Shown here piece after piece: positions 4,577 to 60,577 of a DNA stretch of 64,000 nt. The notes under the pieces are model-generated. The model made no database searches. It was not told the DNA's origin and saw nothing but the letters and a program-made list of their open reading frames with translations. The stretch comes from Minisyncoccota bacterium. GTDB lineage: Bacteria; Patescibacteriota; Minisyncoccia; Phycocordibacterales; Phycocordibacteraceae. Position 1 is the stretch's first letter; the number at the start of each line of letters is the position of its first letter. The stretch spans positions 95,484 through 159,483 of the forward strand of contig DASZTF010000044.1 in NCBI GenBank assembly GCA_035548315.1. Direction: 5' to 3'. Position numbers and translations under genes: made by a program.

Positions 4577-4577
4577 T

Positions 4578-10073: not shown

Positions 10074-10076
10074 GCG

Positions 10077-25900: not shown

Positions 25901-26001
25901 GGGATCGCAAAGAGCACGAAGAGGCCGGCGAGAACGAGCGTGGTGATGAGGACGTAGCTGAACTGCCGGCGCTCGAGGAAGAAGTTCCAGAGAGGCAGCA
26001 T
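22909..26001 (-). CDS. RND efflux transporter (AcrB/HAE1-like), 12 TM
   Basis: 1030 aa with the AcrB domain order: two large periplasmic loops and two 6-TM bundles. Confidence 0.9.
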   Translation of the reverse strand: MLPLWNFFLERRQFSYVLITTLVLAGLFVLFAIPKENTPSIDIPYAVVTTILPGASAEDIETLVTDKVENQVSGVSHIDTMTSNSSSGVSTVIVQFDANADSVQALQDLRDAVSRAQPELPTEAQVPIVSKVSFNDQPILVASISGSLPPTEFSALGKEVSDELKTINGVSEVTVAGVPAREVDVIVRASALEQYGLDLSTVVQAVQSANTALPAGSISLDGVNYDINFKGGIDDPSQIPGIVVGTRGETPVYLSDIATISDGLAPASTYSRLSLNGKPSDNAITLLVYRQSGASIQGVAAAADKKLADLQATTLKGMDVFVSPATDQSVQINQQLGSLSETGLETVALVIIALLLTIGWRESLVAALAIPLSFLIAFIGLYFTGNTLNFISLFALILAVGILVDSGIVVTEAIHARMRIYGGKMQAAKAALHDYAWPLIAGTMATVAVFAPLFFISGIVGKFIAGIPYTLIFVLLASIFVALGIVPLIAVLFTKLEPNRLERAQEEYTHRATEWYKHRLRRVLENRRAQRIFLWALGLGFVTSLILPFTGLVQTVFFPAADMDFVYLNIEKPQGTTLAETDLATREVEEILYTDPDISSFQTTVGASSNLTGQGSSGANQANITVNLPKGHKKTSGQVVSELQQKLAVVHDARVEVLQADNGPSSGAPIQIQFEGNDLDALVTAADKGRQLLSTIAGATNIQSSTESNGNEFDLTVNRGKAAALGVSPVQIASTLRTAIQGAKATSITQPDQDIDVVVKVNLNPAYTTPDTTNQTTIESIENLTVTGSKGPVLLGSVLEPSLGQSNAAINHKDKMRIETVSAYPSSSATTNGVVAEFEKRVGELNLPAGITVSYGGETEDVNQSFTQMFFALIAGLVLMFMILIISFNSIRHTLHLLVIVPLSLIGVLDGLALTGQPISFTSLLGVIALGGVIINHAIILMDSMLHRVRAHPDEPLIDAVVESSATRLRPIALTTITTVIGMVPLALSDPTWGPLAFSIMFGLSFAIILTLVLVPVLFYRSPRESAEID

Positions 26002-26003
26002 GG

Positions 26004-40887: not shown

Positions 40888-42162
40888 ATGCGGCAATCAC
40901 AGCTATTTACGAAAACGCGGAAGCAGGCGCCTTCAGATGAAGAGGCAAAGAACGCCCAGCTCCTTATTCGTGCAGGGTACGTGCACAAACAAATGGCCGG
41001 CGTGTATGCGTACCTGCCGCTCGGGCTTCGGGTGGTCGAGAACATCAAGAAAATAGTGCGCGAAGAGATGAACAAGGTTGGCGGAGAAGAAATGATCATG
41101 ACCTCGCTCCAGCCTAAAGAGCTCTGGGAATCGACCGGCCGCTGGGATGATGCGAACGTCGATGTGTGGTTCAAATCAAAACTCAAGAACGGCGCCGACG
41201 TCGGATTCGGGTGGTCGCACGAGGAACCCATCACCGACATGATGAAGCAGTTCATCGCGAGTTACCGGGACCTGCCAGTGTATGCGTACCAATTCCAGAC
41301 TAAATTGCGTAATGAGCTGCGTGCGAAGTCAGGCATCATGCGGGGGCGCGAGTTCGTGATGAAAGATCTGTACTCGTACACAAAAGACGAGGCGGCTCAC
41401 AAAGAGTTCTACGAAAAAATGACCGCCGCGTACCTCAAGGTGTTTGAGCGGGTTGGCCTCGGTGACCGCACGTACCTCACGTTCGCCTCGGGCGGTGCCT
41501 TCACGCAGTTCTCCCACGAATTCCAGACGATTACAGACATCGGTGAGGACACTATTTATGTGAGCAAGGAGAAAGAGATCGCGATTAATAAGGAGGTGCT
41601 CACCGATGAGGTGATGGCACAGCTCGGAGTTTCTCGCGATGAACTTGAGGAAGTGAAATCAATCGAAGTCGGAAATATCTTTAGCTTCGGCGATGTGAAG
41701 AGCAAGCAGATGGGGCTTATGTATAAAGATGAAAGCGGAGAAGAGAAACCCGTCATCCTCGGCTCCTATGGCATCGGCATCACGCGCCTCATGGGCACGC
41801 TCGTCGAGATATTCGCTGATGATAAGGGCCTCGTCTGGCCGGAAGCCGTTGCGCCGTTCATGGTGCACCTGCTGCTCCTCACGCCGGATGATGAGGCGAC
41901 TAAAGCATACGCCGATGCACTCTACGAAGACCTCCAGAAAGCGGGTGTGGACGTGCTCTACGACGACCGCAGCAACCGCGCGGGGGAGAAGCTCGCGGAC
42001 GCAGACTTGATCGGCATCCCGGCGCGCGTGGTGATCGGTAAGAACACTATTGAGGCGGGAAAGATTGAATCGACCTACCGCCGCACGGGGCAGACCAATC
42101 TCGTCTCGCGCGAGGAATTGATCGCGTTTGCGAGCGGTGCGCAGAAGGCTCACCATGGCTAA
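40888..42162 (+). CDS. proS: prolyl-tRNA synthetase (short form lacking the INS editing domain)
   Basis: MRQSQLF N-terminus, class II motifs, C-terminal anticodon-binding domain. Leaderless (TATACT 6 nt before the ATG). Confidence 0.85.
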   Translation: MRQSQLFTKTRKQAPSDEEAKNAQLLIRAGYVHKQMAGVYAYLPLGLRVVENIKKIVREEMNKVGGEEMIMTSLQPKELWESTGRWDDANVDVWFKSKLKNGADVGFGWSHEEPITDMMKQFIASYRDLPVYAYQFQTKLRNELRAKSGIMRGREFVMKDLYSYTKDEAAHKEFYEKMTAAYLKVFERVGLGDRTYLTFASGGAFTQFSHEFQTITDIGEDTIYVSKEKEIAINKEVLTDEVMAQLGVSRDELEEVKSIEVGNIFSFGDVKSKQMGLMYKDESGEEKPVILGSYGIGITRLMGTLVEIFADDKGLVWPEAVAPFMVHLLLLTPDDEATKAYADALYEDLQKAGVDVLYDDRSNRAGEKLADADLIGIPARVVIGKNTIEAGKIESTYRRTGQTNLVSREELIAFASGAQKAHHG

Positions 42163-43210
42163 GCGATTCTCCAAGAACTCTTTCTTCTCAAGCGACATCG
42201 GGATCGACCTCGGTACAGCTAACACGCTCGTCTATGTGCGCGGTCGTGGGATCGTGCTCAACGAGCCCTCGGTCGTAGCGGTGAATGATAAAACGGGGCA
42301 GGTGGTGGCAATCGGCGCAGACGCCAAGCGCATGCTCGGCAAGACGCCGCCACATATTCGCGCAGTGCGGCCGCTTTCCCACGGCGTCATCTCTGATTTC
42401 GAAGTCACGCAGGAGCTACTCGCGTATCTCATTAATAAAGCGCATGGCGGGCGTTCGCGCCTCTTTGGCCCGCGCGTGGTCGTGGGCGTGCCGACCGGCG
42501 TCACCAACGTGGAAAGCCGCGCCGTGCGCGACGCGGCGATGACCGCGGGCGCGCGTGAAGTGTTCATCATTGATGAACCAGTCGCCGGCGCTATCGGCAG
42601 CAAGCTCCCAATTCACGAAGCGCTCGGTACCATGGTGCTCGACATCGGCGGTGGTACGACTGACATCGCCGTGCTTGCGCTTACGGGCACGGTGGCGAGT
42701 AAGTCCTCGCATGTTGCCGGTGACCGGTTCAATGAAAACATCATCGATTTTGTCCGGAGCGAGTTCCAGCTCGCGATCGGTGAGCGTACTGCGGAAGACG
42801 TAAAGATCAAGATCGGTGCGGTCACCCCGCAGCCTGAACCGCTCACCATGCAGGTGCGCGGCCGCGATCTCGCCACCGGGCTCCCGCGAGAAATCACGCT
42901 TACCGATACCCATGTGCGCGAAGCGCTCGAGAGCTCACTCGACTCGCTGCTCGAAGCGATGAAGGAAGTGATCGAGAAAACCCCGCCGGAGCTACTTTCA
43001 GACGTGCTCGAGCGCGGGGTCACCATATTTGGCGGCGGTGCGCTCCTGCGCGGGCTGCCCGAGCTTTTGAGCAAAATGCTCGGCGTGCCCGTGCATGTGG
43101 CGACCGACCCGCTTACTGCGGTCGTGCGCGGCGCGGGTATTGTGACAGAAGACCCGACGCCGTGGGCGAGCGTATTTATCGATGAAGAGGACGTACTTCG
43201 GGAGGCGTAA
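42155..43210 (+). CDS. mreB: MreB (copy 2, first gene of mreBCD-mrdA)
   Basis: Same actin motifs as copy 1. Overlaps the proS end by 8 nt. Confidence 0.85.
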   Translation: MAKRFSKNSFFSSDIGIDLGTANTLVYVRGRGIVLNEPSVVAVNDKTGQVVAIGADAKRMLGKTPPHIRAVRPLSHGVISDFEVTQELLAYLINKAHGGRSRLFGPRVVVGVPTGVTNVESRAVRDAAMTAGAREVFIIDEPVAGAIGSKLPIHEALGTMVLDIGGGTTDIAVLALTGTVASKSSHVAGDRFNENIIDFVRSEFQLAIGERTAEDVKIKIGAVTPQPEPLTMQVRGRDLATGLPREITLTDTHVREALESSLDSLLEAMKEVIEKTPPELLSDVLERGVTIFGGGALLRGLPELLSKMLGVPVHVATDPLTAVVRGAGIVTEDPTPWASVFIDEEDVLREA

Positions 43211-43967
43211 TGCCCTTATATCGCGCGGCACCGCGCTTATCGGCGGCGCATTCGCGCTCGTGGCACTTATCATACTCGTCCTGCGCCTCGCGTTCCCGAG
43301 CGCGCTCGTTTCAGTCGCAACACCACTGTGGAAGTTCTCTGCAGCAGCGGGGGAGGCTTTCCACGCTGGCGCGGCATCGTTTGCGTCACCCGCCGCACTG
43401 CAACGCGAGCTCGATACCGCACGTGCGCAGAACGACGCGCTCACGAACCAGAACAAGACGCTCGCTGCACAGGTCGTTGATCTACAGAACCTGCTTGGCT
43501 CGCGAACAGACGTGCCGCCTGCAGTACTCGCGAGCGTGCTCACGCGCCCGCCCGAGAGCCCGTATGACACGCTCGTCATCGATCAAGGATCGCGCGCGAC
43601 GATCGCGCCCGACGCGCTCGTGACCGGCCCCGGCGGCGTACCGGTGGGGAAAGTGGCCTCGGTGAACGCCGCATCCGCGCGCGTGCTGCTTTTCTCTGCG
43701 CCCGGCACGGCGACCAATGCATGGGTGGGACAGCATAAAGTACCAATTACGCTTACGGGCGCTGGTAGTGGTGCGTTCGACGCCACGGTTCCGAAGGACG
43801 CGAACATTGTCATCGGTGATTCCGTGTATGTCGCCGACGGTGGCGCCGCGGCGATGGGGACGGTCGTGCGCCTTGATAGCGATCCCTCCTCGACGAGCGT
43901 GACGCTGCGCATCCAACCGCTCGTGAATCCGTTCTCGCTTACGTGGGTGCTTGTCTCTCGTTCATGA
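43182..43967 (+). CDS. mreC: rod shape-determining protein MreC
   Basis: TM anchor, coiled coil, then a beta domain (VVTGPGGVPVGKV...VIGDSVYV). Confidence 0.75.
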   Translation: MKRTYFGRRNALISRGTALIGGAFALVALIILVLRLAFPSALVSVATPLWKFSAAAGEAFHAGAASFASPAALQRELDTARAQNDALTNQNKTLAAQVVDLQNLLGSRTDVPPAVLASVLTRPPESPYDTLVIDQGSRATIAPDALVTGPGGVPVGKVASVNAASARVLLFSAPGTATNAWVGQHKVPITLTGAGSGAFDATVPKDANIVIGDSVYVADGGAAAMGTVVRLDSDPSSTSVTLRIQPLVNPFSLTWVLVSRS

Positions 43968-44221
43968 CACGCTCCGTACTGATGGTGCTCGCAGCTGTCT
44001 CGGTTTTTCTTTTTCCGTGGCCCTACGTTACGGCGCTGGTTTTCCTTGCAGCGCTCTATGTGCCGCTCATCGGCATCTCGCTCGGTGTCATCTATGACGC
44101 CCTCTATTACACGCAGGGCGGTGGGTGGCCGGTGGCAACGCTTGCCGGCATCGTGGGTTCGGTCGCTGCGTTCTTCCTCGCGCGATTCATCCGCTCGCGC
44201 ATCGCGGATGTGTCGCTCTAG
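43964..44221 (+). CDS. mreD: MreD-like small membrane protein
   Basis: 85-aa polytopic protein at the mreD position between mreC and mrdA. ATGA start/stop overlap with mreC. Confidence 0.5.
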   Translation: MTRSVLMVLAAVSVFLFPWPYVTALVFLAALYVPLIGISLGVIYDALYYTQGGGWPVATLAGIVGSVAAFFLARFIRSRIADVSL

Positions 44222-44253
44222 GCGCGAGCCGCGCTTTTCGATAGACTAGAACG

Positions 44254-45939
44254 ATGTGGGGGATAGGGAGTCGCAATCGGTACCGCGATCCGGAAATTGC
44301 ACCGGACGAGATTTTTCTTGATTCGAGCAATCTCCCCGACTTCAACCGCTCCCAGCTTGAAGGAAAACTCGAGAAGCCAATCTCGCGCCGCACCTATGGC
44401 ATATTCGGTGCGGTCATCGCGCTCATACTCATCGCCCTCCTCAGCCAGGCCTGGAATCTCCAGGTGCATCAGGGAGTCGCGTACGCGGCCCGCAGCGAGA
44501 AAAATGTCCTCGCACCCGAGACACTGTTTGCCGCACGCGGCATCATCACGGATAGAAATGGCTCGCCCCTCGTGACGAACGAAGCATCGAGTTCGAGTGA
44601 CCCCGCGGCGTTCGCGAATCGTGTGTACAAAACTCCAGGATTCGGCCAGCTGCTCGGGTACGTCTCGTATCCCAAAAAGGACACGTCGGGTAATTATTAC
44701 GACACCGACATCACCGGCGTCGCGGGAGTGGAGGAGACGTTCAATACACAGCTGGCTGGCGAGAACGGCACGCTGCTCGTGGAGCGAGACGCGCTCGGGA
44801 AAGCGCAGTCGGAAGGTACCATCGTCTCGCCTCAAAACGGCGCGACGCTCACGCTCTCCATTGATGCTCGTGCGCAGAGCGCGTTCTACAGTGCGATTTC
44901 ATCCCTCGCGGATAGGATCCCATTTAGCGGTGGCGCGGGCATCATGATGGACGTGAATACGGGGCAGGTCATCGCGCTCGTTTCCTATCCCGAATACGAC
45001 CCCAACATACTCTCTGCCGGTCAGCCGCGCAGCGTAATCGCTGGGTATTCCACCGACTCGCGCACGCCGTACCTCGACCGTCCCGTGCAGGGCCTTTACA
45101 CGCCCGGCTCCATCGTGAAGCCCGAAGAAGCTGCAGGCGCCCTTACCGACGGGGTGGTGACGCCGAACACCACGGTGAACGACATCGGCTACATCACTAT
45201 CCCTAATCCGTACGATCCAAGCCACCCGAATAAATTCGTGGACTGGAAAGCCATCGGTGTCGAGGATCTGCGTAAGGCCATCGCGTATTCCTCGGACGTC
45301 TATTTCTACATGGTGGGTGGCGGGTACCAGGGGCAGGGCGGGCTCGGCATTGATAGGCTCGGGCAATGGTACAGCACCTTTGGACTCACCAGTGAGACCG
45401 GCATACAGCTGCCCGGAGAAAAGAGCGGATTCGTCCCCGACCCCGCGTGGAAACAAAAGACGTTTAGTGAAGCGTGGAATATCGGTGATACCTATCACAC
45501 GGCGATCGGGCAGTATTCGATGCAGGTGACGCCAATAGAAATGGCGCGGGCGATAGCCGCGATCGCAAACGGCGGTAAACTCGTGACGCCGACTTTGATA
45601 AAGGACGCGCCGCCGCAGGGAGAGTCGATTGCCGTAAATCCGCAGATGCTCCAAGTAGTGCGCGAGGGCATGCGCATGGGCGTGACGGAGGGCACGTCGG
45701 TTGGTCTAAATGACATGTCGTTTGTGCAGCCCGCCGGCAAGACGGGTACCGCGCAGACTGGCCTGCACAACGAGTACTACAACTCCTGGGCGGTAGGGTT
45801 CTGGCCGTATAACGCTCCCAAATACGTGTACGTCGTGATGATGGAGCACGGCCCGGCGGGGAACGCGCTCGGCGGCATCTACGCCATGCACCAGGTTTTC
45901 ATGGACCTCCATCAGTCAGCGCCTGAGTACTTTGAATAG
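44254..45939 (+). CDS. mrdA: penicillin-binding protein 2 (elongation transpeptidase)
   Basis: SIVKP (SxxK), SSD and KTGTA transpeptidase motifs. N-terminal TM helix and dimerisation domain. Confidence 0.8.
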   Translation: MWGIGSRNRYRDPEIAPDEIFLDSSNLPDFNRSQLEGKLEKPISRRTYGIFGAVIALILIALLSQAWNLQVHQGVAYAARSEKNVLAPETLFAARGIITDRNGSPLVTNEASSSSDPAAFANRVYKTPGFGQLLGYVSYPKKDTSGNYYDTDITGVAGVEETFNTQLAGENGTLLVERDALGKAQSEGTIVSPQNGATLTLSIDARAQSAFYSAISSLADRIPFSGGAGIMMDVNTGQVIALVSYPEYDPNILSAGQPRSVIAGYSTDSRTPYLDRPVQGLYTPGSIVKPEEAAGALTDGVVTPNTTVNDIGYITIPNPYDPSHPNKFVDWKAIGVEDLRKAIAYSSDVYFYMVGGGYQGQGGLGIDRLGQWYSTFGLTSETGIQLPGEKSGFVPDPAWKQKTFSEAWNIGDTYHTAIGQYSMQVTPIEMARAIAAIANGGKLVTPTLIKDAPPQGESIAVNPQMLQVVREGMRMGVTEGTSVGLNDMSFVQPAGKTGTAQTGLHNEYYNSWAVGFWPYNAPKYVYVVMMEHGPAGNALGGIYAMHQVFMDLHQSAPEYFE

Positions 45940-49446: not shown

Positions 49447-50397
49447 ATGCAAACGGGACACGAAAGCGTGCTTTTGAGCGAAGTGATGGAGGGACTCGCC
49501 ATCGCGCCGAGCGACATCGTCGTCGACGCTACGGTGGGCGGGGCGGGGCACTTCACCGCGCTCATGCGTGCGCTCGGCGCCGACGGCGTACTTGTGGGTA
49601 TCGACGAAGACACCGCCGCTATCGAACGTGCACGCGAGTCGCTTACGCTCGATAAGCGCGCGGAGCGCCCGATGGTCCACCTGGTCACCGATAACTTCCG
49701 GAACCTTGACCGCATTATCACACGGCTCGAGATTCCCGCGATCACGAAGGCGCTGTTTGACCTTGGGTGGAGCGGCTACCAGCTGTCGGACGGACGTGGC
49801 TTTTCTTTTCAGGGAGATGAGCCACTCCTTATGACGTACGGGAACCCAGAAGCCCATACTACGGCGGCAGAGCTCGTGAACACGCTCGGGGAAGCAGAAC
49901 TTGCAGACCTCATTTATGCGTTTGGGGAGGAGCGCTTCGCGCGACGTATCGCTAAGGCGATCGTCATGGCGCGCAAGACAAAGCGCATCACCTCGACTGC
50001 AGAACTGGTCTCCGTCATCGGATCGGCGGTACCGGCGCCGTATCGCAAGGGACGCATCCACCCGGCGACGAAAACGTTCCAGGCACTGCGTATCGCGGTA
50101 AACGACGAATTCGGCGCGATCAAGCACGGACTCTCGGCCGCGATCGGGAATCTCGCGCATGACGGGCGCATCGCGGTCATTACGTTCCATAGCATCGAGG
50201 ACCGCCTCGTGAAGACCTTGCTCCAAGATGCGGAGCGCGCAGGGAAGGGAGTCGTGCTCACGAAGAAAGTGATCACCGCTTCGCGCGAGGAAGTGCAGCG
50301 GAACCCGCGTGCACGTAGTGCGAAACTGCGCCTCTTCAAATCGACGCTGCCGTCGGCCGTTGCGGAGCTCGCCGTCGAGACCATTGCCTATGCTTAA
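49447..50397 (+). CDS. rsmH: 16S rRNA (cytosine1402-N4)-methyltransferase
   Basis: HESVLL...DATVGGAGH SAM site and TFHSIEDR motif. Confidence 0.85.
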   Translation: MQTGHESVLLSEVMEGLAIAPSDIVVDATVGGAGHFTALMRALGADGVLVGIDEDTAAIERARESLTLDKRAERPMVHLVTDNFRNLDRIITRLEIPAITKALFDLGWSGYQLSDGRGFSFQGDEPLLMTYGNPEAHTTAAELVNTLGEAELADLIYAFGEERFARRIAKAIVMARKTKRITSTAELVSVIGSAVPAPYRKGRIHPATKTFQALRIAVNDEFGAIKHGLSAAIGNLAHDGRIAVITFHSIEDRLVKTLLQDAERAGKGVVLTKKVITASREEVQRNPRARSAKLRLFKSTLPSAVAELAVETIAYA

Positions 50398-50674
50398 CCG
50401 TCTCACGACATACCTGGGTGCAACCTTTGGCGTTATGGTACTCACGTACCTCACGATGGTGGTGTTCACGGTATATCTCGCATCCGAGCAGACGCGCCTG
50501 GGGAGCGCGATCGGCGACACCCAGGCCGCTATCGGCACGCTCGAAGCCTCCTACTACCATGCGGTGACCCAGATCGATGCAGAAGACCCCACTACACTCG
50601 GCTTCACTGAGCCCGCCAGCCGTGAGTACGCGCAGGGCGCGTCTGCTCCTGTCCTCACGCGGGCAGGCATATAG
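50390..50674 (+). CDS. ftsL: FtsL-like cell-division protein
   Basis: 94-aa single-TM protein with a periplasmic coiled coil at the ftsL position. Overlaps the rsmH end by 8 nt. Confidence 0.55.
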   Translation: MLNRLTTYLGATFGVMVLTYLTMVVFTVYLASEQTRLGSAIGDTQAAIGTLEASYYHAVTQIDAEDPTTLGFTEPASREYAQGASAPVLTRAGI

Positions 50675-50676
50675 CA

Positions 50677-52413
50677 ATGCGGCACGTGTTTCGCTCGCGG
50701 TTGCGCATCGTCTTCATTCTCATCCTCGTTTTCGCGCTCCTCCTCATCGTCCGGCTCTATTTCCTCCAGGTGGTGCACGGGCGTGATTACGCCCTCGCTG
50801 CGGAGCATCAGTACGCGAACACCTCGAACACGCTCTACGATCGTGGCGATATTTACTTTACGCGCAAAGACGGCACGCTTATTTCTGCCGCGACACTGGC
50901 GACCGGCTTTTTGGTCGCGATCGACCCTGAAATACTTGCGAATCCGGAGGACACGTATCAAAAAATTAATGCGATCATCCCGCTCGATCACGACGCATTC
51001 ATGGCGCATGCGAATAAGACCGACGATCCTTACGAGGTCATCGCTGATCACGTGGCAGAAGACGCCGGGCAGAAGATCAGCGACCTCGACATCACGGGCG
51101 TGATCCTGGTGCGCGAGCGCTGGCGCAGCTACCCCGCTGGGAGCGAGGCCGCGCAGACCGTCGGGCTCGTGGCGTACGACGACGACAGCACGCTCGCTGG
51201 CCGGTACGGGCTCGAGCGCTACTACGACGATGTGCTCCAGCGACCGGGCGGTGGGCTCTTCGGCAATTTCTTCGCTGAGCTCTTCGCGAACGTGGGGAAC
51301 ACACTCGGCGATGCGCGCGAAGCGAAGCAGGGTGACGTGATTACCTCTATCGAGCCGGTGGTAGAGCAGAAGCTCGACGATGAACTCAAAAATGTAGAGT
51401 CAAAGTACGCGAGCCAAGCCTCGGGCGGCATCATCATGGATCCCGCCACCGGCGAGATCGTCGCGCTCGATGTGAATCCCTCGTTTGATCCCAATGACTT
51501 TGCCAACGAAGACGCGTCGACGTTCGGTAATCCGCTCGTGGAGCGCCGGTATGAATTCGGCTCCATTGTGAAATCCCTTACGATGACATCCGGCATCGAC
51601 TCGGGCGCGGTGACACCACAGACTACGTACAACGACACCGGCTGCATCACGGTGAATAAAAGCCGCATCTGTAACTACGACTTGCGCGCACGCGGCGTGA
51701 TCCCGATGCAGCAGATCCTTTCCCAATCGCTCAACGTCGGCGCCTCGTGGGTGGCCACGCAAGTCGGGCACGCGCGCATGCAGGCGTACTTCAAGGCGCT
51801 CGGCATGGACACCGAAACGGGTATCGACCTGCCGAGCGAAATCCCGGGCACCCTCGAGAACCTCGCGAGCCCGGGGCTCGACGTGAACTATGACACCGCG
51901 TCGTTCGGCCAAGGTATCGCGCAGACACCCGTCGAGATGATTCGCGCGCTTGGCGCGCTCGCGAACCATGGCTCCATCGTGACGCCGCACCTCGCTACGG
52001 CGATCCGACTCGATAATGGCATCACCCGCCCCTTGTCCTGGGGAGACCCCGTACAGGTCTTTAAGCCGTCCTCGGTGCAGACGGTGACCGATATGCTCGT
52101 GACCGTCGTCGATACCGCGCTCCTCCATGGCAACGCCAAGAACCCCGACTACAGCGTCGCCGCGAAGACGGGCACCGCGCAGATTGCTGCGCCGGGCGGT
52201 GGATACTATCCAGGAAGCGTCTATTTCCACTCGTTCTTCGGCTATTTCCCGGCGGAAAACCCGCGCTTTATTATCCTTCTTTACACCATCCGCCCGCAGG
52301 GCGTGGAATACGCATCGGAAACGCTCACCACATCCTTCCTTGACCTCGTGCACTTCCTGACCAACTATTACGCAGTGCCGCCTGATCGCGCTACCTATGA
52401 GAAACCTTCTTAA
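50677..52413 (+). CDS. ftsI: penicillin-binding protein (FtsI-like transpeptidase)
   Basis: SIVKS, SQSLN and KTGTA motifs. TM anchor. Confidence 0.8.
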   Translation: MRHVFRSRLRIVFILILVFALLLIVRLYFLQVVHGRDYALAAEHQYANTSNTLYDRGDIYFTRKDGTLISAATLATGFLVAIDPEILANPEDTYQKINAIIPLDHDAFMAHANKTDDPYEVIADHVAEDAGQKISDLDITGVILVRERWRSYPAGSEAAQTVGLVAYDDDSTLAGRYGLERYYDDVLQRPGGGLFGNFFAELFANVGNTLGDAREAKQGDVITSIEPVVEQKLDDELKNVESKYASQASGGIIMDPATGEIVALDVNPSFDPNDFANEDASTFGNPLVERRYEFGSIVKSLTMTSGIDSGAVTPQTTYNDTGCITVNKSRICNYDLRARGVIPMQQILSQSLNVGASWVATQVGHARMQAYFKALGMDTETGIDLPSEIPGTLENLASPGLDVNYDTASFGQGIAQTPVEMIRALGALANHGSIVTPHLATAIRLDNGITRPLSWGDPVQVFKPSSVQTVTDMLVTVVDTALLHGNAKNPDYSVAAKTGTAQIAAPGGGYYPGSVYFHSFFGYFPAENPRFIILLYTIRPQGVEYASETLTTSFLDLVHFLTNYYAVPPDRATYEKPS

Positions 52414-53680
52414 ACACGCTGTCGCAGCCGTCCTAGCGGGCATTTCGCGCGCGATCGTGGCTAAATATAAGCCCACCATTGTGATGGTCACGGGGAGTGT
52501 CGGGAAGACCTCTACCAAGGACGCTATCGCCGCCGCGCTCGCCGAACGCACCTACATCCGTGCAAGCGAGAAGAGCTTCAATAGCGAACTCGGCGTCCCC
52601 CTTACCATCATCGGCGTTCCGAATCCGTGGGCAAGCGCGCTCGGGTGGCTTGGGGTGGTGAAGGAAGGGCTCGCACTCGTGTTCTTCCCGAACCACTATC
52701 CGAAAACGCTCGTGCTTGAAGTCGGTGCAGATCAGCCGGGTGATCTTTCGAAGGTGCTCCAGATCGCGACACCCGATGTGGTCGTGGTCACCCGACTCCC
52801 GGAAGTACCCGTGCATGTGGAAGCGTACCCATCTCCTGAAGCAGTGCGCGAAGAAGAGTTTGTCCCGGCGTACGGGCTCCCGCCTGGCGCCCCACTCATC
52901 ATTTCTTCGGAAGACGAATACGCCGCCGCATATGCGAAGCGCCTCGCACTCACGATTCACACCTATGGTACGAGTAGCGATGCAGACGTGCGGGTCCATG
53001 ATGTCGATATCGCGCTCACCAGTGATCGCCCGAGCGGCATGCGGGGGAGGGTGACCGTGGACGATGTCACGATGGACCTCTCGGTACGCGGCGCACTCGG
53101 GCCGCACCAGCTCCTTGCACCCGCTGCTGCCATTGCCACCGCTGACGCGCTTGGCATTCCCCTTGAGCAGGCGCTCAAAGGACTCGAATCGTATATGCCA
53201 CCGCCAGGGCGAATGCGTATCCTTGCGGGACAAAATGACACACTTCTCATTGACGACAGTTACAACTCTTCACCAATCGCCGCAGAAGAGGCGCTCCACG
53301 CACTCAAATCACTCCCGCGGGTGAAGCGCCGCATCGCGGTTTTGGGTGACATGCTCGAACTGGGTCGCTTCTCGGTCGCAGAGCACGAGCGCATTGGAAC
53401 GCTTGCTGCAGCCTGCGTGGATATGCTGCTTACGGTAGGGATCCGCTCGCGCGCTATGGCAGAGGCGGCACGAGGTGCCGGTCCCGTGGAGGTCCACACG
53501 TTCGCTTCTGCGCAAGAAGCAGCTGCTTTTCTGCACCCGCGCCTCGCGCCCGGTGACGCCATTCTTATGAAAGGTTCGCAGAATAACATCCGCCTCGAGC
53601 GCGTCGTGGCGGCTCTTCTCGCTGATCCCGCTGACGCAGCGAAACTCGTCCGGCAGGATAAAGAGTGGCAACTCCGCTAG
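52397..53680 (+). CDS. murF: UDP-MurNAc-tripeptide--D-Ala-D-Ala ligase (N-terminal domain apparently absent)
   Basis: P-loop GSVGKTST at residue ~33, a Mur-ligase central domain, and a C-terminal domain (DDSYNSSP). Confidence 0.75.
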   Translation: MRNLLKHAVAAVLAGISRAIVAKYKPTIVMVTGSVGKTSTKDAIAAALAERTYIRASEKSFNSELGVPLTIIGVPNPWASALGWLGVVKEGLALVFFPNHYPKTLVLEVGADQPGDLSKVLQIATPDVVVVTRLPEVPVHVEAYPSPEAVREEEFVPAYGLPPGAPLIISSEDEYAAAYAKRLALTIHTYGTSSDADVRVHDVDIALTSDRPSGMRGRVTVDDVTMDLSVRGALGPHQLLAPAAAIATADALGIPLEQALKGLESYMPPPGRMRILAGQNDTLLIDDSYNSSPIAAEEALHALKSLPRVKRRIAVLGDMLELGRFSVAEHERIGTLAAACVDMLLTVGIRSRAMAEAARGAGPVEVHTFASAQEAAAFLHPRLAPGDAILMKGSQNNIRLERVVAALLADPADAAKLVRQDKEWQLR

Positions 53681-53710
53681 CGGGCACGCCGCGTACGTTA
53701 TCATGCGTAC

Positions 53711-55129
53711 ATGCCACCCGCTCGCACGGTGCGGCAGCAGGGGAGTATCACGCTCGAGATCATCATCGCGTTTGCGGTGGCGTCGCTCGTGCTTACCTCG
53801 GTGATCCTGCTTGTCGGTGGGAGCGATGCGCTTGCCTACGAGCGCAGCATTGCGGAGCGCTCGCTTGCATATGAATCTATACAAGACGCGCGCATCGCGT
53901 GGTCGAGTGACATCGCCTCGATGGCGTCGTATGCGTCGACCACTGAGCGCGATCACGTGCCATACTCGCTCGCGCTCATCGTGAGTGCTGTGACGCCCTG
54001 TCTTACCGAGCTCTCTGCTGCGGCCTCAAGCACTGGCGGGGTAGGGGACGGTATTGAGCTACGCGCCGATCTGGCGGATACCGCACTCGCTCGCGCGCTC
54101 GGCGATGACTGCGAGTACCACGCAGCAAGTGACTGGAGTCATCCGCGCGAGACCGGCACTGCACCGATAGACGCTACCGCAGTCGATGTGCTCGGCGGCA
54201 CGGTGTACCTTGGACGTTCTATGCCGCCCTACCTTGCAGTGGGAGCGGGCGACGCATCTCTCCCATTCCAAAACGGATTTGCATTGTCTGCTCCACCGAA
54301 TGCGATCGACGCCGCGCTTGTCGGAGGGACTCCGTACGTGTTTGCAGCGCTCGCTTCGTCAACGGGGCAGTTCGTCGCGGTTGATATGCGCGACCCGAGC
54401 CACCCGATTATCGCGGCGCAGCTCTCGCTCGCGGGGATCAATCCGGCCGGCAGCGATCCCGCCGCGTACCACGTGCTCTATTACGACGGCAGGGCATACG
54501 TGGTTACCCGCTACATCGCGGGTGCGCAGCCCGAACTCCATATATTCGACGTTGCCGATCCCGCGCACGCCTATGAAATGGGTAATGCAAACCTCGAGAC
54601 CACGGTACGCGGGATGACCGCGCGCACCCGGGTCGTGCACGGCGTGGCGCACACGTTTTTCTATGCTGCGACTACGTATGACACGCGCGAGCTCGCGGTA
54701 TACGACGTTACTGATCCTGCGCATGTCTCGCTCGTGTCGAGCGTGGACCTGCCCGGCACGCAGGACGGTGACAGTATCGCGGCAGAAGGGAATATGCTCT
54801 ATCTCGGCCGCGCATCTAATACAGCTGGCCCCGAGCTCTACGCGTTTGAGGTGCACGACCCGGCACAGGCTCCGGTACTTGTCGCTACAGCGGAAATTAC
54901 GAGCAAAGACATCACCGCCATCATCCCTGTGGGGAGCTTGCTGTTTGTCGCCGCTACTAATGACGGCGCGAGTAATCGCATGCTGCAGATCTGGGACATG
55001 AGCGACACCGCACACGTGTATCAGCGCGCAGCACTTAAGATCCCTGGTCTCGTGCTCGGCGGGATTGAGTATGCGAGTTCGACACTCTACGCAATCGATG
55101 CCACAACCTTTCATTCCTATGAAGACTAA
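53711..55129 (+). CDS. pilin-like protein with N-terminal class-III-type hydrophobic helix and a C-terminal LVIVD-repeat beta-propeller
   Basis: QQGSITLEIIIAFAVASLVL resembles a prepilin N-terminus. Repeated (F/Y/W)D(V/M)xDPAH(A/V) blocks (FDVADPAHAY, YDVTDPAHVS, VHDPAQAP, WDMSDTAHVY). Leaderless (TATCAT 6 nt before the ATG). Confidence 0.55.
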   Translation: MPPARTVRQQGSITLEIIIAFAVASLVLTSVILLVGGSDALAYERSIAERSLAYESIQDARIAWSSDIASMASYASTTERDHVPYSLALIVSAVTPCLTELSAAASSTGGVGDGIELRADLADTALARALGDDCEYHAASDWSHPRETGTAPIDATAVDVLGGTVYLGRSMPPYLAVGAGDASLPFQNGFALSAPPNAIDAALVGGTPYVFAALASSTGQFVAVDMRDPSHPIIAAQLSLAGINPAGSDPAAYHVLYYDGRAYVVTRYIAGAQPELHIFDVADPAHAYEMGNANLETTVRGMTARTRVVHGVAHTFFYAATTYDTRELAVYDVTDPAHVSLVSSVDLPGTQDGDSIAAEGNMLYLGRASNTAGPELYAFEVHDPAQAPVLVATAEITSKDITAIIPVGSLLFVAATNDGASNRMLQIWDMSDTAHVYQRAALKIPGLVLGGIEYASSTLYAIDATTFHSYED

Positions 55130-55508
55130 CCGCGGGTTCACGCTCATCGAAGTCATTGTGTATCTGGCGCTGTTCTCGGTGCTTATGGCCGGCGCGGTTA
55201 TGAGTTTGTCCGCAGTCACGCGCGGCGCCGACGAGCGCCGGCGCGCCGCGGCAGTCGCGAGCGAGGCAGACTTCCTCGAAGCGAAGCTCGCGGTACAGGT
55301 AGCCGAGGCGCATAGCCTTACCGGTGTCGTGTTCGACCCAGTCGCGCGCACGATAACGCTAAACGGCGTGCCGCTCACCAGCGCGAATGTATCCGTCGGT
55401 GCCTTTACAGCTGATCGCGTGGAGGACTCGCGCGGCAGCGTCGTCGCGTATGATGTTCGCTTCGTCATAGATGGCGAGGAGTTCAGTGAGCGCCTCTACC
55501 TGCCATGA
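55119..55508 (+). CDS. type IV pilin/pseudopilin
   Basis: KTNRGFTLIEVIVYLALFSVLMAG is a canonical prepilin-peptidase site (G/FTLIE). Overlaps the previous gene by 11 nt. Confidence 0.7.
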   Translation: MKTNRGFTLIEVIVYLALFSVLMAGAVMSLSAVTRGADERRRAAAVASEADFLEAKLAVQVAEAHSLTGVVFDPVARTITLNGVPLTSANVSVGAFTADRVEDSRGSVVAYDVRFVIDGEEFSERLYLP

Positions 55509-55828
55509 AAGGCTTCGCCGCACTTACCTCGGTACTCATCATCGCGGCGGTGTTACTCGTGGTAGTGGTGAGCACTAGCGTGCCGGTGTTCTATGCGCGT
55601 ATGGACCTCCTCGAGTCAGAATGGGAGGCGCAGTCCGCACTTTCTGCTCAGAGCTGTGCCGATCTAGTGAACCTGCGACGGGTGATCGATCATGCATACT
55701 CGGGAGGGGATGAAATCGAAGTGGGTGAGGCGCGGTGCGCGGTGAGTACCATTGTGCAAAAAGGAAACACAATTATATTCACCGTACAAAGCGAGTATCA
55801 CGGCTCAGTCACCGTGCTAGAGTTTTAA
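55505..55828 (+). CDS. minor pilin-like protein (no Glu5)
   Basis: MKGFAALTSVLIIAAVLLVVVVS N-terminal helix. ATGA overlap with the upstream pilin. Confidence 0.45.
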   Translation: MKGFAALTSVLIIAAVLLVVVVSTSVPVFYARMDLLESEWEAQSALSAQSCADLVNLRRVIDHAYSGGDEIEVGEARCAVSTIVQKGNTIIFTVQSEYHGSVTVLEF

Positions 55829-55856
55829 CGTTCGTTACCCATAATCCGCTCGCAAT

Positions 55857-56369
55857 ATGAAGACCGCTCGCAAGCAGTCACTGCGTCGACACGTGCACGT
55901 GTCGCGCGCCTTTACTCTTATAGAAGTCCTCGTGGTGATAGGCATCATCGCTATCCTCGCGGGGATTGTGCTCGTCGCCCTTAACCCCGGGCGCCAGTTC
56001 GCGCTCGCGCGCAACAGCGAGCGCGTGAGCAATACCACCACCATCTTGAACGCCATCGGGCAGCGTACCGCTGATAACAAGGGCATCTTTGAAGGCGCCT
56101 TTACGGTGGGAAGCGATAGTTATACATGCCCCGCGCTTACCGCTGGCACAGAGTACGACATCGCAAGTTCCGGCGGCATCGACCTCTCGTGTCTCACGCC
56201 GACCTACATCCCGGCCGCGCTGCCGTTTGACCCTTCCGCGCCAGGTGCGCACTGGAGCAGTGCCACTGACTACGACACCGGCTACCACGTCGTCATGGAT
56301 TCCTCCGGCCGGTATACCGTCTCCGCGCCATCGGCCGAACTCGGCGAGACTGTCTCAGTAACCCGGTAA
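55857..56369 (+). CDS. type IV pilin
   Basis: SRAFTLIEVLVVIGIIAILAGIVLVAL. A C-terminal Cys pair (CPAL...SCL) fits a D-region disulfide. Confidence 0.75.
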   Translation: MKTARKQSLRRHVHVSRAFTLIEVLVVIGIIAILAGIVLVALNPGRQFALARNSERVSNTTTILNAIGQRTADNKGIFEGAFTVGSDSYTCPALTAGTEYDIASSGGIDLSCLTPTYIPAALPFDPSAPGAHWSSATDYDTGYHVVMDSSGRYTVSAPSAELGETVSVTR

Positions 56370-56419
56370 TAAGGGCCTTTTTGTGGCCTGATTGCGTGCT
56401 AGTATCCCTATATCAGGCC

Positions 56420-57598
56420 ATGAAGATAGTCTTTACCGGTGGGGGCACGGGCGGGCACTTTTACCCCTTGATCGCCATTGCAGAAGCGGTACGCGAGCTT
56501 GTGGCTGAGCGACACCTCGTGCCGCCCAAACTCTACTTCTTTGCGCCGGAGCCGTACGATGAGGAGTCGCTTTTTGCGAATGATATCGCGTATGTAAAGA
56601 TTCCTTCGGGCAAGATCCGCCGCTACTTCTCGCTGCAGAACGTCACCGATGCGTTCAAGATACTGTGGGGTATCGGCGTCTCCATCGGGAATCTGTTCTC
56701 TGTGTATCCAGACGTCGTGATCTCGAAGGGCGGGTTCGGGAGCGTGCCGGTAGTGATCGCGGCAAAGCTGCTCGATATCCCCGTGATCATCCACGAGTCT
56801 GATTCAAAACCGGGACGTGCGAATCTGCTTGCCGCGCACTTTGCCGACCGCATCGGTATCGCGTTTGAAAGTTCGGCGAAATATTTCCCGAAAAGCGCGC
56901 AAGGAAAGCTCGCGCTCGTCGGCATACCGATCCGCCGCGAAGTCGCCGCAGCAGAATCAGAGGGTGCCCGTCAGGAGCTCGGACTCGAGCCATCGCTTCC
57001 GACGGTGTTCATATTTGGCGGCTCTACAGGCTCAGCGCGCATTAACGAGACCGTGCTCGGTGCGCTCCCGGATCTCGTGGCGATGACCAATGTCATCCAC
57101 CAGACAGGTAAGGCGGCGTACGCCGATGTCGACGCGACCGCGAAAGCAGAGCTGCGCAATGACCCCAATGCGTCGCACTACCATCCCTTTGCGTATCTCA
57201 ATGCGCAGTCCATCCGCCGCGCCGCAGGCGCGGCGGATGTGATCGTCGCGCGCGCAGGATCGACGTCTATTGCTGAAATATCGCTGTGGAAGAAGCCGGC
57301 GATCCTCATTCCCATTCCTGAGTCGGTGAGTCACGACCAGCGCACCAATGCCTATACCTATGCGCACACCGGTGCCGCAATCGTGCTCGAGGAGAGCAAC
57401 CTCACCCCGCACCTGCTCGCCTCTGAAATCCGCCGCATCGTCACCGACAAGCCGCTCGCCACGCAGATGGCGGAAAAGGGCGCGACATTTATGCCCGGCG
57501 ACGCAGCGAAGCTTATCGCGGAGGAAGCGCTGCGCATCGGACTCTCCCATGAGCCGGTGCAGGTCCAGGAAGTCGTGACCCCGAACCCTCTCGTATGA
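56420..57598 (+). CDS. murG: UDP-GlcNAc--MurNAc-pentapeptide-undecaprenol GlcNAc transferase
   Basis: KIVFTGGGTGGHFYP and C-terminal GT-B motifs. Confidence 0.85.
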   Translation: MKIVFTGGGTGGHFYPLIAIAEAVRELVAERHLVPPKLYFFAPEPYDEESLFANDIAYVKIPSGKIRRYFSLQNVTDAFKILWGIGVSIGNLFSVYPDVVISKGGFGSVPVVIAAKLLDIPVIIHESDSKPGRANLLAAHFADRIGIAFESSAKYFPKSAQGKLALVGIPIRREVAAAESEGARQELGLEPSLPTVFIFGGSTGSARINETVLGALPDLVAMTNVIHQTGKAAYADVDATAKAELRNDPNASHYHPFAYLNAQSIRRAAGAADVIVARAGSTSIAEISLWKKPAILIPIPESVSHDQRTNAYTYAHTGAAIVLEESNLTPHLLASEIRRIVTDKPLATQMAEKGATFMPGDAAKLIAEEALRIGLSHEPVQVQEVVTPNPLV

Positions 57599-59004
57599 CC
57601 GTCCGTACTCGCTTTGCGCCCTCTCCCACGGGCTTCATGCACGTAGGCAATGTACGCAGCGCAATCTTTGCGTGGCTGTTTGCACGTAAGCACGGCGGTC
57701 AATTTATCCTGCGCATCGAGGACACCGACAAGAATAGGGAAGTAGAAGGATCGATCGGACACATTATGGAGTCGCTTAAATGGCTCAGTCTCGATTGGGA
57801 TGAGGGGCCGGACATCGGCGGTCCTCATGAGCCGTACATTCAGTCGTCGCGACTCGAGCTCTACACTAAGTATGCGCAGCAGCTTATTGAAAAAGGATTT
57901 GCGTATCCCGATTCGCGCACACCTGAAGAACTCGACGCGCTCCGCAAGCAAGCAGAAGATGAAAGGCGGCCATTCCTTGCGCGCGAACATCGCCCAGAAA
58001 ATGCTGGTGAATGGGACGGTAGTCAGTCACTGCGCTTTCGCGTGCCGGTGATCAAGCGCTACGAATGGCACGACCTCGTGCGCGGTGATCTTTCTGCGGG
58101 AGAAGAAGCGCTCGATGATTTCATACTTATTAAGAGTGATGGATATCCGACGTACAACTTCGCGCACATCGTCGACGATATCGAGATGGGTATTACGCAC
58201 GTCATGCGTGGCGAGGAATATGTTTCTTCAACACCCAAATACCTTGCGCTCTACGAAGCGCTCGGCGTGCAGCCGCCGGTGCTCGCGCATTTGCCGCATA
58301 TTCTTGGCGAAGCCGGTACTAAAAAGCTCGGGAAGCGTGATGGTGCGAAAGATGTGCTGGAGTATCGCACCGAGGGCTACCTTCCAGATGCGATGGTCAA
58401 CTTCCTCGCGCTCCTTGGTTGGCACCCAGAGAGCGGTGATGAGGTACTCGACCGCGAGGCGCTCATCGCGGCGTTTGATATTGAAAAGGTACAGAAGAGC
58501 GGCGCGCGGTTCGATGATGCGAAGCTCCTCCATATCAATCAAGAATGGATGCGCAAACTATCCGATGCTGACTATGTGACTCAGCTTGGTCAAGAAGTAT
58601 CGCCTGCTATCGTGGCAGTACTCAAGGAGCGCGCGCAGACCTTTGGTGAGGCGCGCGAACTCCTTGCGGGTGAACTCGCATACCTCTTTGCAGCACCCAC
58701 GCTCGATCGAGCAATATTAGTATCAAAGGAACCAAGTCCGGGGCGAACTAAGATTTATCTTGAGGGGTTAATCGGTATCGTAGAACGTCTAGATGGCACA
58801 GAGCATTCTGCGGAGCAGGTTCGTGACACAATTATGCCCTATGCCAATGCAAATGAAGAGGGAAGAGGGCCTGTTCTCCACCCCCTTCGCTACGCACTTT
58901 GCGGAGCTGAGCGTTCACCTGATCCCTTCACACTTATCGCCATTTTAGGGCGGGAGGAATCGCTATCGCGCCTTAAAACGGCGCTTGGTATACTAGGCGG
59001 ATGA
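57595..59004 (+). CDS. gltX: glutamyl-tRNA synthetase
   Basis: RFAPSPTGFMHVGNVRSA (HIGH) and KLGKRDG (KMSKS variant). Confidence 0.9.
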   Translation: MTVRTRFAPSPTGFMHVGNVRSAIFAWLFARKHGGQFILRIEDTDKNREVEGSIGHIMESLKWLSLDWDEGPDIGGPHEPYIQSSRLELYTKYAQQLIEKGFAYPDSRTPEELDALRKQAEDERRPFLAREHRPENAGEWDGSQSLRFRVPVIKRYEWHDLVRGDLSAGEEALDDFILIKSDGYPTYNFAHIVDDIEMGITHVMRGEEYVSSTPKYLALYEALGVQPPVLAHLPHILGEAGTKKLGKRDGAKDVLEYRTEGYLPDAMVNFLALLGWHPESGDEVLDREALIAAFDIEKVQKSGARFDDAKLLHINQEWMRKLSDADYVTQLGQEVSPAIVAVLKERAQTFGEARELLAGELAYLFAAPTLDRAILVSKEPSPGRTKIYLEGLIGIVERLDGTEHSAEQVRDTIMPYANANEEGRGPVLHPLRYALCGAERSPDPFTLIAILGREESLSRLKTALGILGG

Positions 59005-60359
59005 TATTGGTTCGCCGCTCATTTACGATACTTTTTCTCCTCCTCGTTGTACTTCTTGCGCACCCGTCAGCGCTCCTTGCCGATACCGTATCCGACATCC
59101 AGTCGCAGATTAACGATATCAATAGCCAAAAGGCCGAACTCGACGCGCAAATCGCGCAGTATCAAAAGCAGCTCGATTCACTCGGCGTTCAGCACCAGAC
59201 CCTCCAGACCTCTATTTCCTCACTCAACACTTCCCAGTCGCAGCTCCTCGCTAAGATAAAAAGTACGCAAAAGTCGATCGACGCAGCAAATTTGAAACTC
59301 AAGCAGCTCAGCTCACTCATCGGCAGCACGCAGGATTCGATCGATATGGAGCGCCAAGCGGTCGCTGCGTCGCTGCGCGATATCGCAAGCGCAGATGATG
59401 TCCCGCTCGTTGCGACGCTGTTCTCATCCGATTCGCTCGCCACCGCGTGGGCAGCCGTCGATGCGGATAACCAGCTCGCCGCCACGCTCCAGGGGCACAC
59501 GCACAGTCTCGCGCAGGCGAAGGATGCGCTCTCTGAGGAACAGACCAGTGTTTCAGCACAGCACGACCAGCTCGCGAGTCTCGGCAGCGACCTCACGTCT
59601 CAGAACAAACAGCTCACGGCGACCAAGCAGGCCAAGCAGTCGCTGCTCACGCAGACCCAGAGCCAGGAGTCGCAGTACCAGTCGCTGATCGCGCAGAAGA
59701 AGGCGCAGGAGGCGCAGTTTGAAAAAACCCTCGCCGACCTCCAGGCCCAGCTCGCGCCGGTGTCTGCCGGATCGATCCCGCAAGCAGGGAGCGGCATCCT
59801 CAAGTGGCCGGCATCGCTTGCCTTCATGCAGGGCTGCCAGGGTAAATCAAGTGCGCTCGGTAATCCGTATTGTGTGACGCAGTACTTTGGCAATACGCAG
59901 TTCGCAGCGGCGCACGCTGCGGTCTATAACGGCATGGGTCACGATGGCATCGACATCGGTATGCCTATTGGCACCCCGGTCCTGGCGGCGCTCGGCGGTA
60001 CGGTGCTCGCGACCGGCAACACCGACGTGAAGTCTCCCTCCGGCCAGATGTGCTACTCATTCGGTAAGTGGGTGATGGTCCAGCACCCGAATGGTCTCTC
60101 CACGCTCTACGCGCACCTGTCATCCATCGAAGCGACGAAAGGGCAGGTGGTGACGACAGGCCAGGAGCTCGGCCTTTCCGGCATGACCGGGTATGCGACT
60201 GGCCCGCACCTCCATTTCGGCGTCTATGCGTCGTCGGGCGTGCAGATCATGGACCTTGGCAAATGGCGTGGCTCGGGCGGCACTCCGTGTACGGACGCCG
60301 GTGCTGTGCTGCCGGTCGCTCCGGACAACGCCTATCTCAATCCGATGGCGTACCTCTAG
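59001..60359 (+). CDS. M23 family metallopeptidase with long N-terminal coiled coil (EnvC/NlpD-like)
   Basis: Signal/TM segment, then a Gln-rich coiled coil. C-terminal HDGIDIG...GPHLHFGV M23 motifs (HxxxD, HxH). Leaderless (TATACT 6 nt before the ATG). Confidence 0.8.
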   Translation: MILVRRSFTILFLLLVVLLAHPSALLADTVSDIQSQINDINSQKAELDAQIAQYQKQLDSLGVQHQTLQTSISSLNTSQSQLLAKIKSTQKSIDAANLKLKQLSSLIGSTQDSIDMERQAVAASLRDIASADDVPLVATLFSSDSLATAWAAVDADNQLAATLQGHTHSLAQAKDALSEEQTSVSAQHDQLASLGSDLTSQNKQLTATKQAKQSLLTQTQSQESQYQSLIAQKKAQEAQFEKTLADLQAQLAPVSAGSIPQAGSGILKWPASLAFMQGCQGKSSALGNPYCVTQYFGNTQFAAAHAAVYNGMGHDGIDIGMPIGTPVLAALGGTVLATGNTDVKSPSGQMCYSFGKWVMVQHPNGLSTLYAHLSSIEATKGQVVTTGQELGLSGMTGYATGPHLHFGVYASSGVQIMDLGKWRGSGGTPCTDAGAVLPVAPDNAYLNPMAYL

Positions 60360-60379
60360 CGCGGTATACTAGGGAAGAC

Positions 60380-60577
60380 ATGCTGCATATCCTTTTCTAC
60401 ACGATCATCGTGATCCTGGTGCTCTCGTTCTTCGGTATTTCGCTTCAGAGTATCGTCCACTCGCCGCAGGCGCAGGCCAACTTCGACTACCTCTGGGGGC
60501 TCGTACTCCTCGGGTGGCACTATGTCCTTGGCTTCTACAATCTGTTCATCGACTGGCTCGGTCACTTTATCCATTAG
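60380..60577 (+). CDS. small membrane protein (65 aa, two TM)
   Basis: TATACT 9 nt upstream of the ATG. Hydrophobic helices. Confidence 0.4.
   Translation: MLHILFYTIIVILVLSFFGISLQSIVHSPQAQANFDYLWGLVLLGWHYVLGFYNLFIDWLGHFIH

Follow-up and report, generated by a model that had tools for sequence, protein, structure and literature searches.

In a 64,000-nt stretch of DNA from a Minisyncoccota bacterium (the window; positions and strands refer to it unless a locus of a relative, such as L001, is named), an open reading frame (ORF) on the + strand at 53711..55129 runs from an ATG start through 472 codons to a stop. We consider it probable (about 0.72) that the product of this focal gene is a minor type IV pilin of modular build, which presents its LVIVD β-propeller at a filament tip to bind a ligand (adhesion). 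The ORF is genuine and has exactly the coordinates given by an earlier interpretation made from the bare sequence (the sequence-only reading). In NCBI, its product finds a 100% match in a "hypothetical protein" from a metagenome-assembled genome (MAG) of Candidatus Paceibacterota, where the gene lies on a 278,842-bp contig, and all database copies of the protein are labelled "hypothetical". The taxonomic label is compatible with the episymbiotic lifestyle that the sequence-only reading had proposed, although a label is in itself no test of lifestyle.

Signal, pilin module and propeller

A class III signal consists of a leader ending in Gly or Ala followed by 20–25 hydrophobic residues, often with Glu at position 5 (Glu5), and its hydrophobic stretch forms the first half of an α1 helix of ~50 residues (PMC10191384). 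The N-terminus of the focal protein is built in this way. A predicted hydrophilic leader (MPPARTVRQQG, aa 1–11, 53711..53743, + strand; net charge +2) ends in Gly, the −1 residue, and is followed by ~22 hydrophobic residues with Glu at +5. Residues 11–28 read GSITLEIIIAFAVASLVL, and the mature N-terminus, SITLEIIIAFAVASLVLTSVILLVGG, has a mean Kyte-Doolittle hydropathy of 2.33 over 22 residues. The sequence-only reading had recognized a prepilin-like N-terminus here, and the segment does behave as a class III signal rather than as an ordinary signal peptide. We infer that the prepilin is cleaved after Gly11, at G|S. Further grounds for identifying a class III signal are a helix-plus-sheet "lollipop" in the predicted structure, fold matches to minor pseudopilins, the invariance of Gly−1 and Glu+5 across 109 family members, the pilin genes that adjoin the focal gene, and the T2SSE/T2SSF genes that precede it in five lineages.

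The predicted pilin module spans aa 12–129 (53744..54097, + strand). According to AlphaFold2, with secondary structure assigned by DSSP, it comprises an α1 helix that starts with SITLE, including Glu5 (residues 13–63, 51 residues), a four-stranded antiparallel sheet (strands 74–80, 83–93, 98–107, and 115–122), and a short helix (124–129). The same helix-plus-sheet emerged when the N-terminal 145 residues were modelled alone (pLDDT 74.8 for the best model). Searched against the PDB with Foldseek, the isolated module found type 4 filament subunits as all of its best matches: XcpV in an XcpGHIJK model (E = 0.025), EpsI, XcpV, GspI, and a competence pilin from Thermus. The pseudopilins had probabilities of 0.94–1.0, target-normalised TM-scores were 0.5–0.75, and no unrelated fold ranked above the filament subunits. 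As modelled, then, the module most resembles the "I" minor pseudopilins of type II secretion (XcpV, EpsI, GspI), and the N-terminus has the sequence and predicted fold of a type IV pilin. At the level of sequence, a search of the PDB with the focal protein alone returned nothing at E ≤ 10; the family profile gave a marginal match to the N-terminus of a Geobacter pilin (E = 0.01), in which RG|FSTLEILIA aligned with KG|FTLIELLIV.

The composition of the protein is also pilin-like. Small residues (GAST) make up 39.6% of the focal protein and 40% of the product of gene 4, a pilin gene described below, compared with 27–33% in the cytoplasmic neighbours MurF, MurG, and GltX. High GAST content is a trend reported for the pilins of TM7x (PMC11623550).

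Between the two modules lies a junction, LGxDC...W (aa 130–145, 54098..54145, + strand), in which G131, C134, and W142 are nearly invariant, as is C97 of the pilin module (98–109 sequences). Cys134 may pair with Cys97 as a disulphide, and this putative pair, together with the junction motif, suggests that the propeller is attached in a fixed rather than a floppy manner.

The remainder of the protein (aa 146–472, 54146..55126, + strand) is predicted to be a seven-bladed LVIVD β-propeller on the evidence of a Pfam match, motif blocks, strand pattern, and Foldseek. LVIVD (PF08309) matched the focal protein with 25.3 bits (E = 9.2e-6), above the curated gathering cutoff of 20.2; this signal exceeds chance and bears out the sequence-only assignment to this repeat. 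That reading had also counted at least four repeat blocks of the form [FYW]D[VM]xDPAH[AV]. The count holds for a relaxed motif but not for the exact pattern: only two blocks fit exactly (FDVADPAHA at 279 and YDVTDPAHV at 331), and allowing one to three substitutions yields five (VDMRDPSHP at 224, these two, FEVHDPAQA at 379, and WDMSDTAHV at 428). The spacing of the five, 48–55 aa, agrees with tandem repeats of ~42–50 aa serving as blades. AlphaFold modelling had been suggested as a check, with the lack of a predicted propeller as the outcome that would count against the idea; a full-length AlphaFold2 model built on a 14-sequence alignment (mean pLDDT 82.9, pTM 0.76) contains a propeller, with 27 strands in residues 146–471 forming seven four-stranded blades. 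The best Foldseek matches of the model in the PDB were seven-bladed propellers (the LGI1 EPTP domain, the β-TrCP WD40 domain, and NUP43), at E = 3e-8 to 1e-6 over about 350 aligned columns.

A family embedded in a pilin cassette

Apart from the identical database entry, a word-indexed search retrieved 14 homologues (26–63% identity) from metagenome bins of Paceibacterota and Minisyncoccia. A second such search with the family profile added two further proteins only, and all were named "hypothetical"; a scan of a genome collection with the 14-sequence alignment found four loci only. Searched with a profile, 1.84 billion cluster representatives yielded 888 proteins at E < 1e-30. The best 150 of these 888 matches were mostly 430–560 aa long and covered the profile from position ~5 to ~465.

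We assembled 134 size-matched relatives from the in-range proteins among these best 150 matches and the close homologues of the word-indexed search. G-x4-E occurred near the N-terminus in 110 of them, with Gly at −1 in every case, a median leader of 12 residues, and F (45), S (25), or I (11) as the residue at +1; the canonical G|FSTLE is found in many members of the family. Of the other 24, most start within or after the hydrophobic helix, which suggests that they are mostly truncated gene calls. In an alignment of 109 sequences with a mean column identity of 25%, the only invariant columns were G11, E16, and G366. When 98 members were scanned with Pfam, 76 matched LVIVD (best E = 1.4e-29), 19 matched N_methyl (PF07963; best E = 5.8e-6), and 17 matched Beta_propel. 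Judged by these sequence features, a family with hundreds of cluster representatives shares a pilin stem and an LVIVD propeller.

Three pilin-like genes follow the focal gene on the + strand, and the only prepilin motifs found in the window are those of this cassette. Gene 2 (55119..55508) encodes a small pilin of 129 aa with the leader MKTNRG followed by FTLIE; it matches N_methyl with 37 bits as well as TIGR02532 and occupies a "J-like" position. Its start, taken at 55119, is in line with the L010 gene call, and it has position-specific orthologues in five other loci (L009, L007, L011, L012, and L003). Gene 3 (55505..55828) encodes a pilin-like protein of 107 aa, MKG followed by FAALTSVLII, which lacks Glu5 and gave no Pfam match. 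In the alignment of its homologues, G3, C51, and C78 are invariant, giving two conserved Cys, and the +5 residue is non-acidic. Tip complexes are, as a rule, capped by a subunit without Glu5 (PMC10191384). The Glu5-less gene 3 fits this rule, and we regard it as a candidate capping ("K-like") subunit. Its orthologue in Nomurabacteria (L007, 7996–12024) is 1342 aa long and carries SpaA_2 prealbumin-like domains, compared with 107 aa in the window; the "capping" position can therefore also carry large grafted modules.

Gene 4 (55857..56369) encodes a major-pilin-like protein of 170 aa, SRA followed by FTLIEVLVVIGIIAILAG...NPGRQF, which matches N_methyl with 28.9 bits and is probably the major pilin. 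Its −1 residue is Ala (SRA|FTLIE), whereas Gly was present in all six orthologues examined (for example SRG|FTLIE in L009), a one-base difference (GCC versus GGC). Ala at −1 is permitted in class III signals and is usually less well cleaved.

The cassette is inserted inside the dcw (division and cell wall) cluster, in the order mraZ-mraW-ftsL-ftsI-murF-[pilins]-murG-gltX-M23 peptidase (window 52397–57598). On the upstream flank, murF (52397..53680, + strand; Mur_ligase_M and Mur_ligase_C) ends 30 bp before the focal start, and on the downstream flank murG (56381..57598, + strand; Glyco_transf_28 and Glyco_tran_28_C) begins 11 bp after gene 4. Farther upstream lie ftsI and mraW, and farther downstream gltX and the M23 peptidase gene. 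The order murF, focal gene, genes 2–4, murG is kept in at least five contigs (the window, L001/L002, L003/L004, L009, and the P0012 contig), whose focal homologues are 35–63% identical. L003 has an extra gene of 187 aa (7407–7970), with a weak match to Gmad2, an immunoglobulin-like domain, after murF and before the propeller pilin gene; the window lacks this extra gene.

Pilin genes lay directly downstream of the focal homologue in all ten loci examined. Among distant members of the family, the order is T2SSE ATPase, T2SSF platform, a pilin of ~150 aa (g0), propeller pilin, and genes 2, 3, and 4. We found the T2SSE-T2SSF-g0 order in five loci, from Paceibacterota (L006), Nomurabacteria (L007), and Saccharibacteria (L008) and in L011 and L012, the sequence of the last ending before the ATPase. 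The best NCBIfam matches of g0 were GspH, XpsH, and ComGD, all below the curated cutoffs; in L006 the match spans nearly the whole XpsH model. By BLAST, genes 2, 3, and 4 are position-specific orthologues across loci. Gene 4 is the best conserved, at 46–84% identity, and in the Saccharibacteria locus its homologues are five pilin paralogues in tandem. The set can thus be read, from sequence and predicted fold, as an H-like g0, the focal protein (I-like by fold), gene 2 (J by position only), gene 3 (Glu5-less and K-like), and the major pilin, an order that mirrors GspH-I-J-K and PilH-I-J-K.

Proposed function, precedents and alternatives

We propose that the focal prepilin is inserted into the membrane via its class III signal and that a prepilin peptidase encoded elsewhere would cut the 11-residue leader after Gly11. 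The Glu5-bearing α1 helix of the GspI-like module would dock the protein into a type IV filament. With the products of gene 2 and the Glu5-less gene 3 (and, in relatives, the GspH-like pilin), it would form a priming complex that becomes the tip of a filament made of the gene 4 major pilin, and the T2SSE ATPase and T2SSF platform would power assembly. The pilin module would be the carrier and the LVIVD propeller the displayed module, the two being joined through the conserved Cys-containing junction, and the likely target of the propeller would be the surface of another cell or a substrate.

The adhesion role is proposed by analogy, because there is precedent for it in modular pilins and in PilX2. 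Modular pilins use their pilin module for polymerisation, with the grafted module exposed (PMC8179133). To bind its host efficiently, Nanosynbacter lyticus TM7x (Saccharibacteria) needs PilX2, a propeller-bearing minor pilin of its thin T4P-2 pili, whereas filament extrusion does not depend on this pilin: deletion of PilX2 halves host binding and leaves filament assembly unaffected, and PilX2 has been proposed to be the tip adhesin (PMC11623550). Like the focal protein, it comes from a Patescibacterium and counts as a minor pilin, its signal is non-canonical, a seven-bladed propeller makes up its C-terminal part, and its GAST content is high. By its published description it is set apart by a propeller of the RCC1 type instead of LVIVD, and it has no predicted PilD signal, whereas the focal family keeps Gly−1 and Glu5 (PMC11623550). 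No match of the focal protein to the RCC1 family was found in Pfam at E ≤ 1. The relation between the two is most likely one of analogy, and PilX2 is the closest functional analogue of the focal protein.

The combination of a pilin with LVIVD repeats is itself on record. Dataset S1 of Raynaud et al. 2021 contains about 30 proteins in which IPR012902 is followed by one to thirteen copies of IPR013211, and the text names one example, from Candidatus Falkowbacteria, a lineage within the candidate phyla radiation (CPR), with a motif "of unknown function" (PMC8179133). IPR013211 is the LVIVD repeat (PMC10210494). As in the focal protein, the class III signal and pilin module come first and the LVIVD repeats after; unlike our analysis, that survey gave counts only and was based on InterPro's pilin signature, for which the focal protein gives no match. 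Our analysis adds how large the family is (888 proteins at E < 1e-30) and describes a GspI-like module, an H-I-J-K-like position, and a location between murF and murG.

Other type 4 filament systems share parts of the design. In Streptococcus sanguinis, PilB (vWA), PilC (lectin), and the I-like PilA follow the same principle, in which a small pilin acts as carrier of a bulky binding module grafted through a short link; that species has a three-member minor-pilin tip complex instead of HIJK, and an envelope without an outer membrane (PMC8179133, PMC9934059, PMC10191384). Its grafted modules are vWA and lectin domains rather than an LVIVD propeller, the grafted subunit in our case is itself I-like, and there is no sequence relationship. 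In type IVa pili, the tip adhesins PilY1/PilC (IPR008707 propeller) resemble the role proposed for the focal protein in that a propeller is shown at the tip by a minor-pilin complex. PilY1, however, is a non-pilin carried by the HIJK complex, and the focal protein brings a pilin module of its own. We rejected a relationship to PilY1: the focal protein had no Pfam PilC/PilY1 match at E ≤ 1, and PilY1 was not among its top 50 Foldseek matches. The core minor pilins of the "I" class (GspI, EpsI, XcpV, PilV) provide the best structural matches, and their gene likewise comes after an H-like pilin gene and before those of two minor pilins, the last without Glu5. Membership is absent at the level of sequence (no TIGR01707 match), and the likeness is structural and positional only. 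The I subunits known to us are 100–130 aa long and have no grafted domain.

Several observations weigh against a tip pilin. The focal protein matches none of Pfam N_methyl, TIGR02532, and TIGR01707 (gspI) even at E ≤ 1, and its +1 residue is Ser instead of Phe; the N_methyl profile is built around G|FTLIE, as against G|SITLE in the focal subclade. Of the five AlphaFold2 models of the isolated pilin module, a single one is confident; the other four have pLDDT values of 46–57. The Foldseek E-values of the module are weak (0.025–0.5), as is expected for a fold of ~80 residues. LVIVD repeats are known as repeats of surface proteins to which no function has been assigned (PMC2447325; PMC10210494). 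Finally, tblastn with the L007 and L008 proteins detected no T2SSE or T2SSF in the 64 kb at E ≤ 1, and Pfam scans of 36 other ORFs of the window revealed no pilus machinery and no prepilin peptidase; nor was a prepilin peptidase seen in the related loci. The proposed mechanism thus assumes a T2SSE, a T2SSF, and a prepilin peptidase in the focal genome, since none was found in the window.

If the signal were left uncleaved, the protein might be no filament subunit at all and might simply anchor its propeller at the cell surface, in the manner of "choice-of-anchor" surface proteins, with a superficial likeness to pilins. The missing N_methyl match would fit such an anchor, as would the many non-pilin surface proteins that contain LVIVD repeats (giant multi-repeat proteins occur among the profile matches; PMC2447325) and weak NCBIfam matches to choice-of-anchor I and B (E = 5e-3 and 1e-4), which lie far under their cutoffs and were set aside. 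But a plain anchor would not hold Gly−1 and Glu+5 invariant over 109 sequences at a mean column identity of 25%, has no need of a GspI-like sheet packed on the helix, and does not account for fixed synteny with pilins and T2SSE/T2SSF in ten loci. We therefore rejected an ordinary Sec signal peptide or simple membrane anchor as the principal explanation and consider it very unlikely. A subunit of a different filament is a more serious, if still unlikely, alternative: the same pilin could belong to a short pseudopilus, similar to those of Com or type II secretion systems (T2SS), that serves DNA uptake or export, with a propeller that binds DNA or cargo or acts as an enzyme. The order of ATPase, platform, and pilin genes resembles the comG and gsp operons, and the accessory pilins find their best sequence or fold matches in GspH, XpsH, ComGD, and GspI. 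Beside the Paceibacterota and Nomurabacteria relatives, the ATPases are short (405–428 aa) and, unlike the Saccharibacteria ATPase of L008, have no MshEN N-domain, and no retraction ATPase adjoins any locus that we saw. Such a pseudopilus is nevertheless disfavoured by the propellers, the seven-bladed ones on pili having so far been tied to adhesion (PilY1 and PilX2), and by gene 4 (165–183 aa), which is homologous to multi-copy pilins of Saccharibacteria, a phylum whose type IV pili are known as extended. To our knowledge, moreover, CPR cells have no outer membrane for a T2SS to cross.

The position of the cassette raises the question of whether it has been co-opted in this clade for a role in cell-wall synthesis or division. 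The murF-cassette-murG order is conserved between homologues that are 35–63% identical (window, L001, L003, L009, and the P0012 contig), and the flanking gaps are short, at 30 and 11 bp. A scan of 50000–60500 for promoters and terminators gave counts not above shuffled expectation, with no + strand site between murF, the cassette, and murG. Yet all pilin hallmarks are kept, the genes are orthologous to cassettes that stand beside pilus machinery elsewhere, and operon position does not by itself alter what a protein does biochemically. In the compact genomes of CPR bacteria, co-transcription of unrelated genes is frequent. We regard a wall or division role as highly improbable.

Returning to the tip pilin, we can also formulate a broader version, which we offer as speculation and consider unlikely. 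It would make the LVIVD-propeller pilin the "I" subunit of an H-I-J-K-like priming complex across Paceibacterota-type CPR bacteria, an adhesin built into the core assembly complex instead of attached to it; with the move of the cassette into the dcw operon, supply of the tip subunit would have become transcriptionally coupled to wall synthesis and division. If true, this coupling could, for instance, arm each daughter cell for attachment.

Other features of the window and significance

Other parts of the window hold features unrelated to the pilin cassette. A low-GC island at 3590–5669 (GC 0.45 versus about 0.59) carries an EcoRI-type adenine methyltransferase (PF13651, 426 bits) and a GmrSD_N + HNH nuclease, and is probably an acquired restriction/defence module. 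Two adjacent genes of GH130, the β-1,4-mannooligosaccharide phosphorylase family, lie on the − strand at 8139–11279 beside a phosphomannomutase-like gene (7396–8142). Also on the − strand (22909–27494), an AcrB-family RND (resistance-nodulation-division) transporter (1030 aa, 616 bits) adjoins an HlyD-type membrane-fusion protein, a surprising pair in a lineage believed to have no outer membrane. Two MreB paralogues, MreC, a small MreD-sized ORF, and a PBP2-type transpeptidase are encoded at 36078–37091 and 42128–45939, and together make a complete rod-shape system, here in the genome of an ultra-small member of Paceibacterota.

The leading candidates for attachment organelles in CPR/Patescibacteria are type IV pili, and all cultivated members of the group that we know of lead a life attached to other microbes. 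Their pilins diverge too far to be annotated routinely. Since modular pilins, and a CPR pilin that bears a propeller, have already been published, our findings leave the current picture unchanged and will not surprise a specialist. Modest novelty lies in how large the family is, in the I-like place of its propeller-bearing subunit within an H-I-J-K-like set, and in the relocation of the cassette to the dcw cluster in one Paceibacterota clade. The family has a fixed place in a GspH/I/J/K-like gene set beside a pilus motor, which provides a concrete candidate for a tip adhesin together with a few partner genes. LVIVD repeats thereby gain a testable role, and the findings are of use for annotation.

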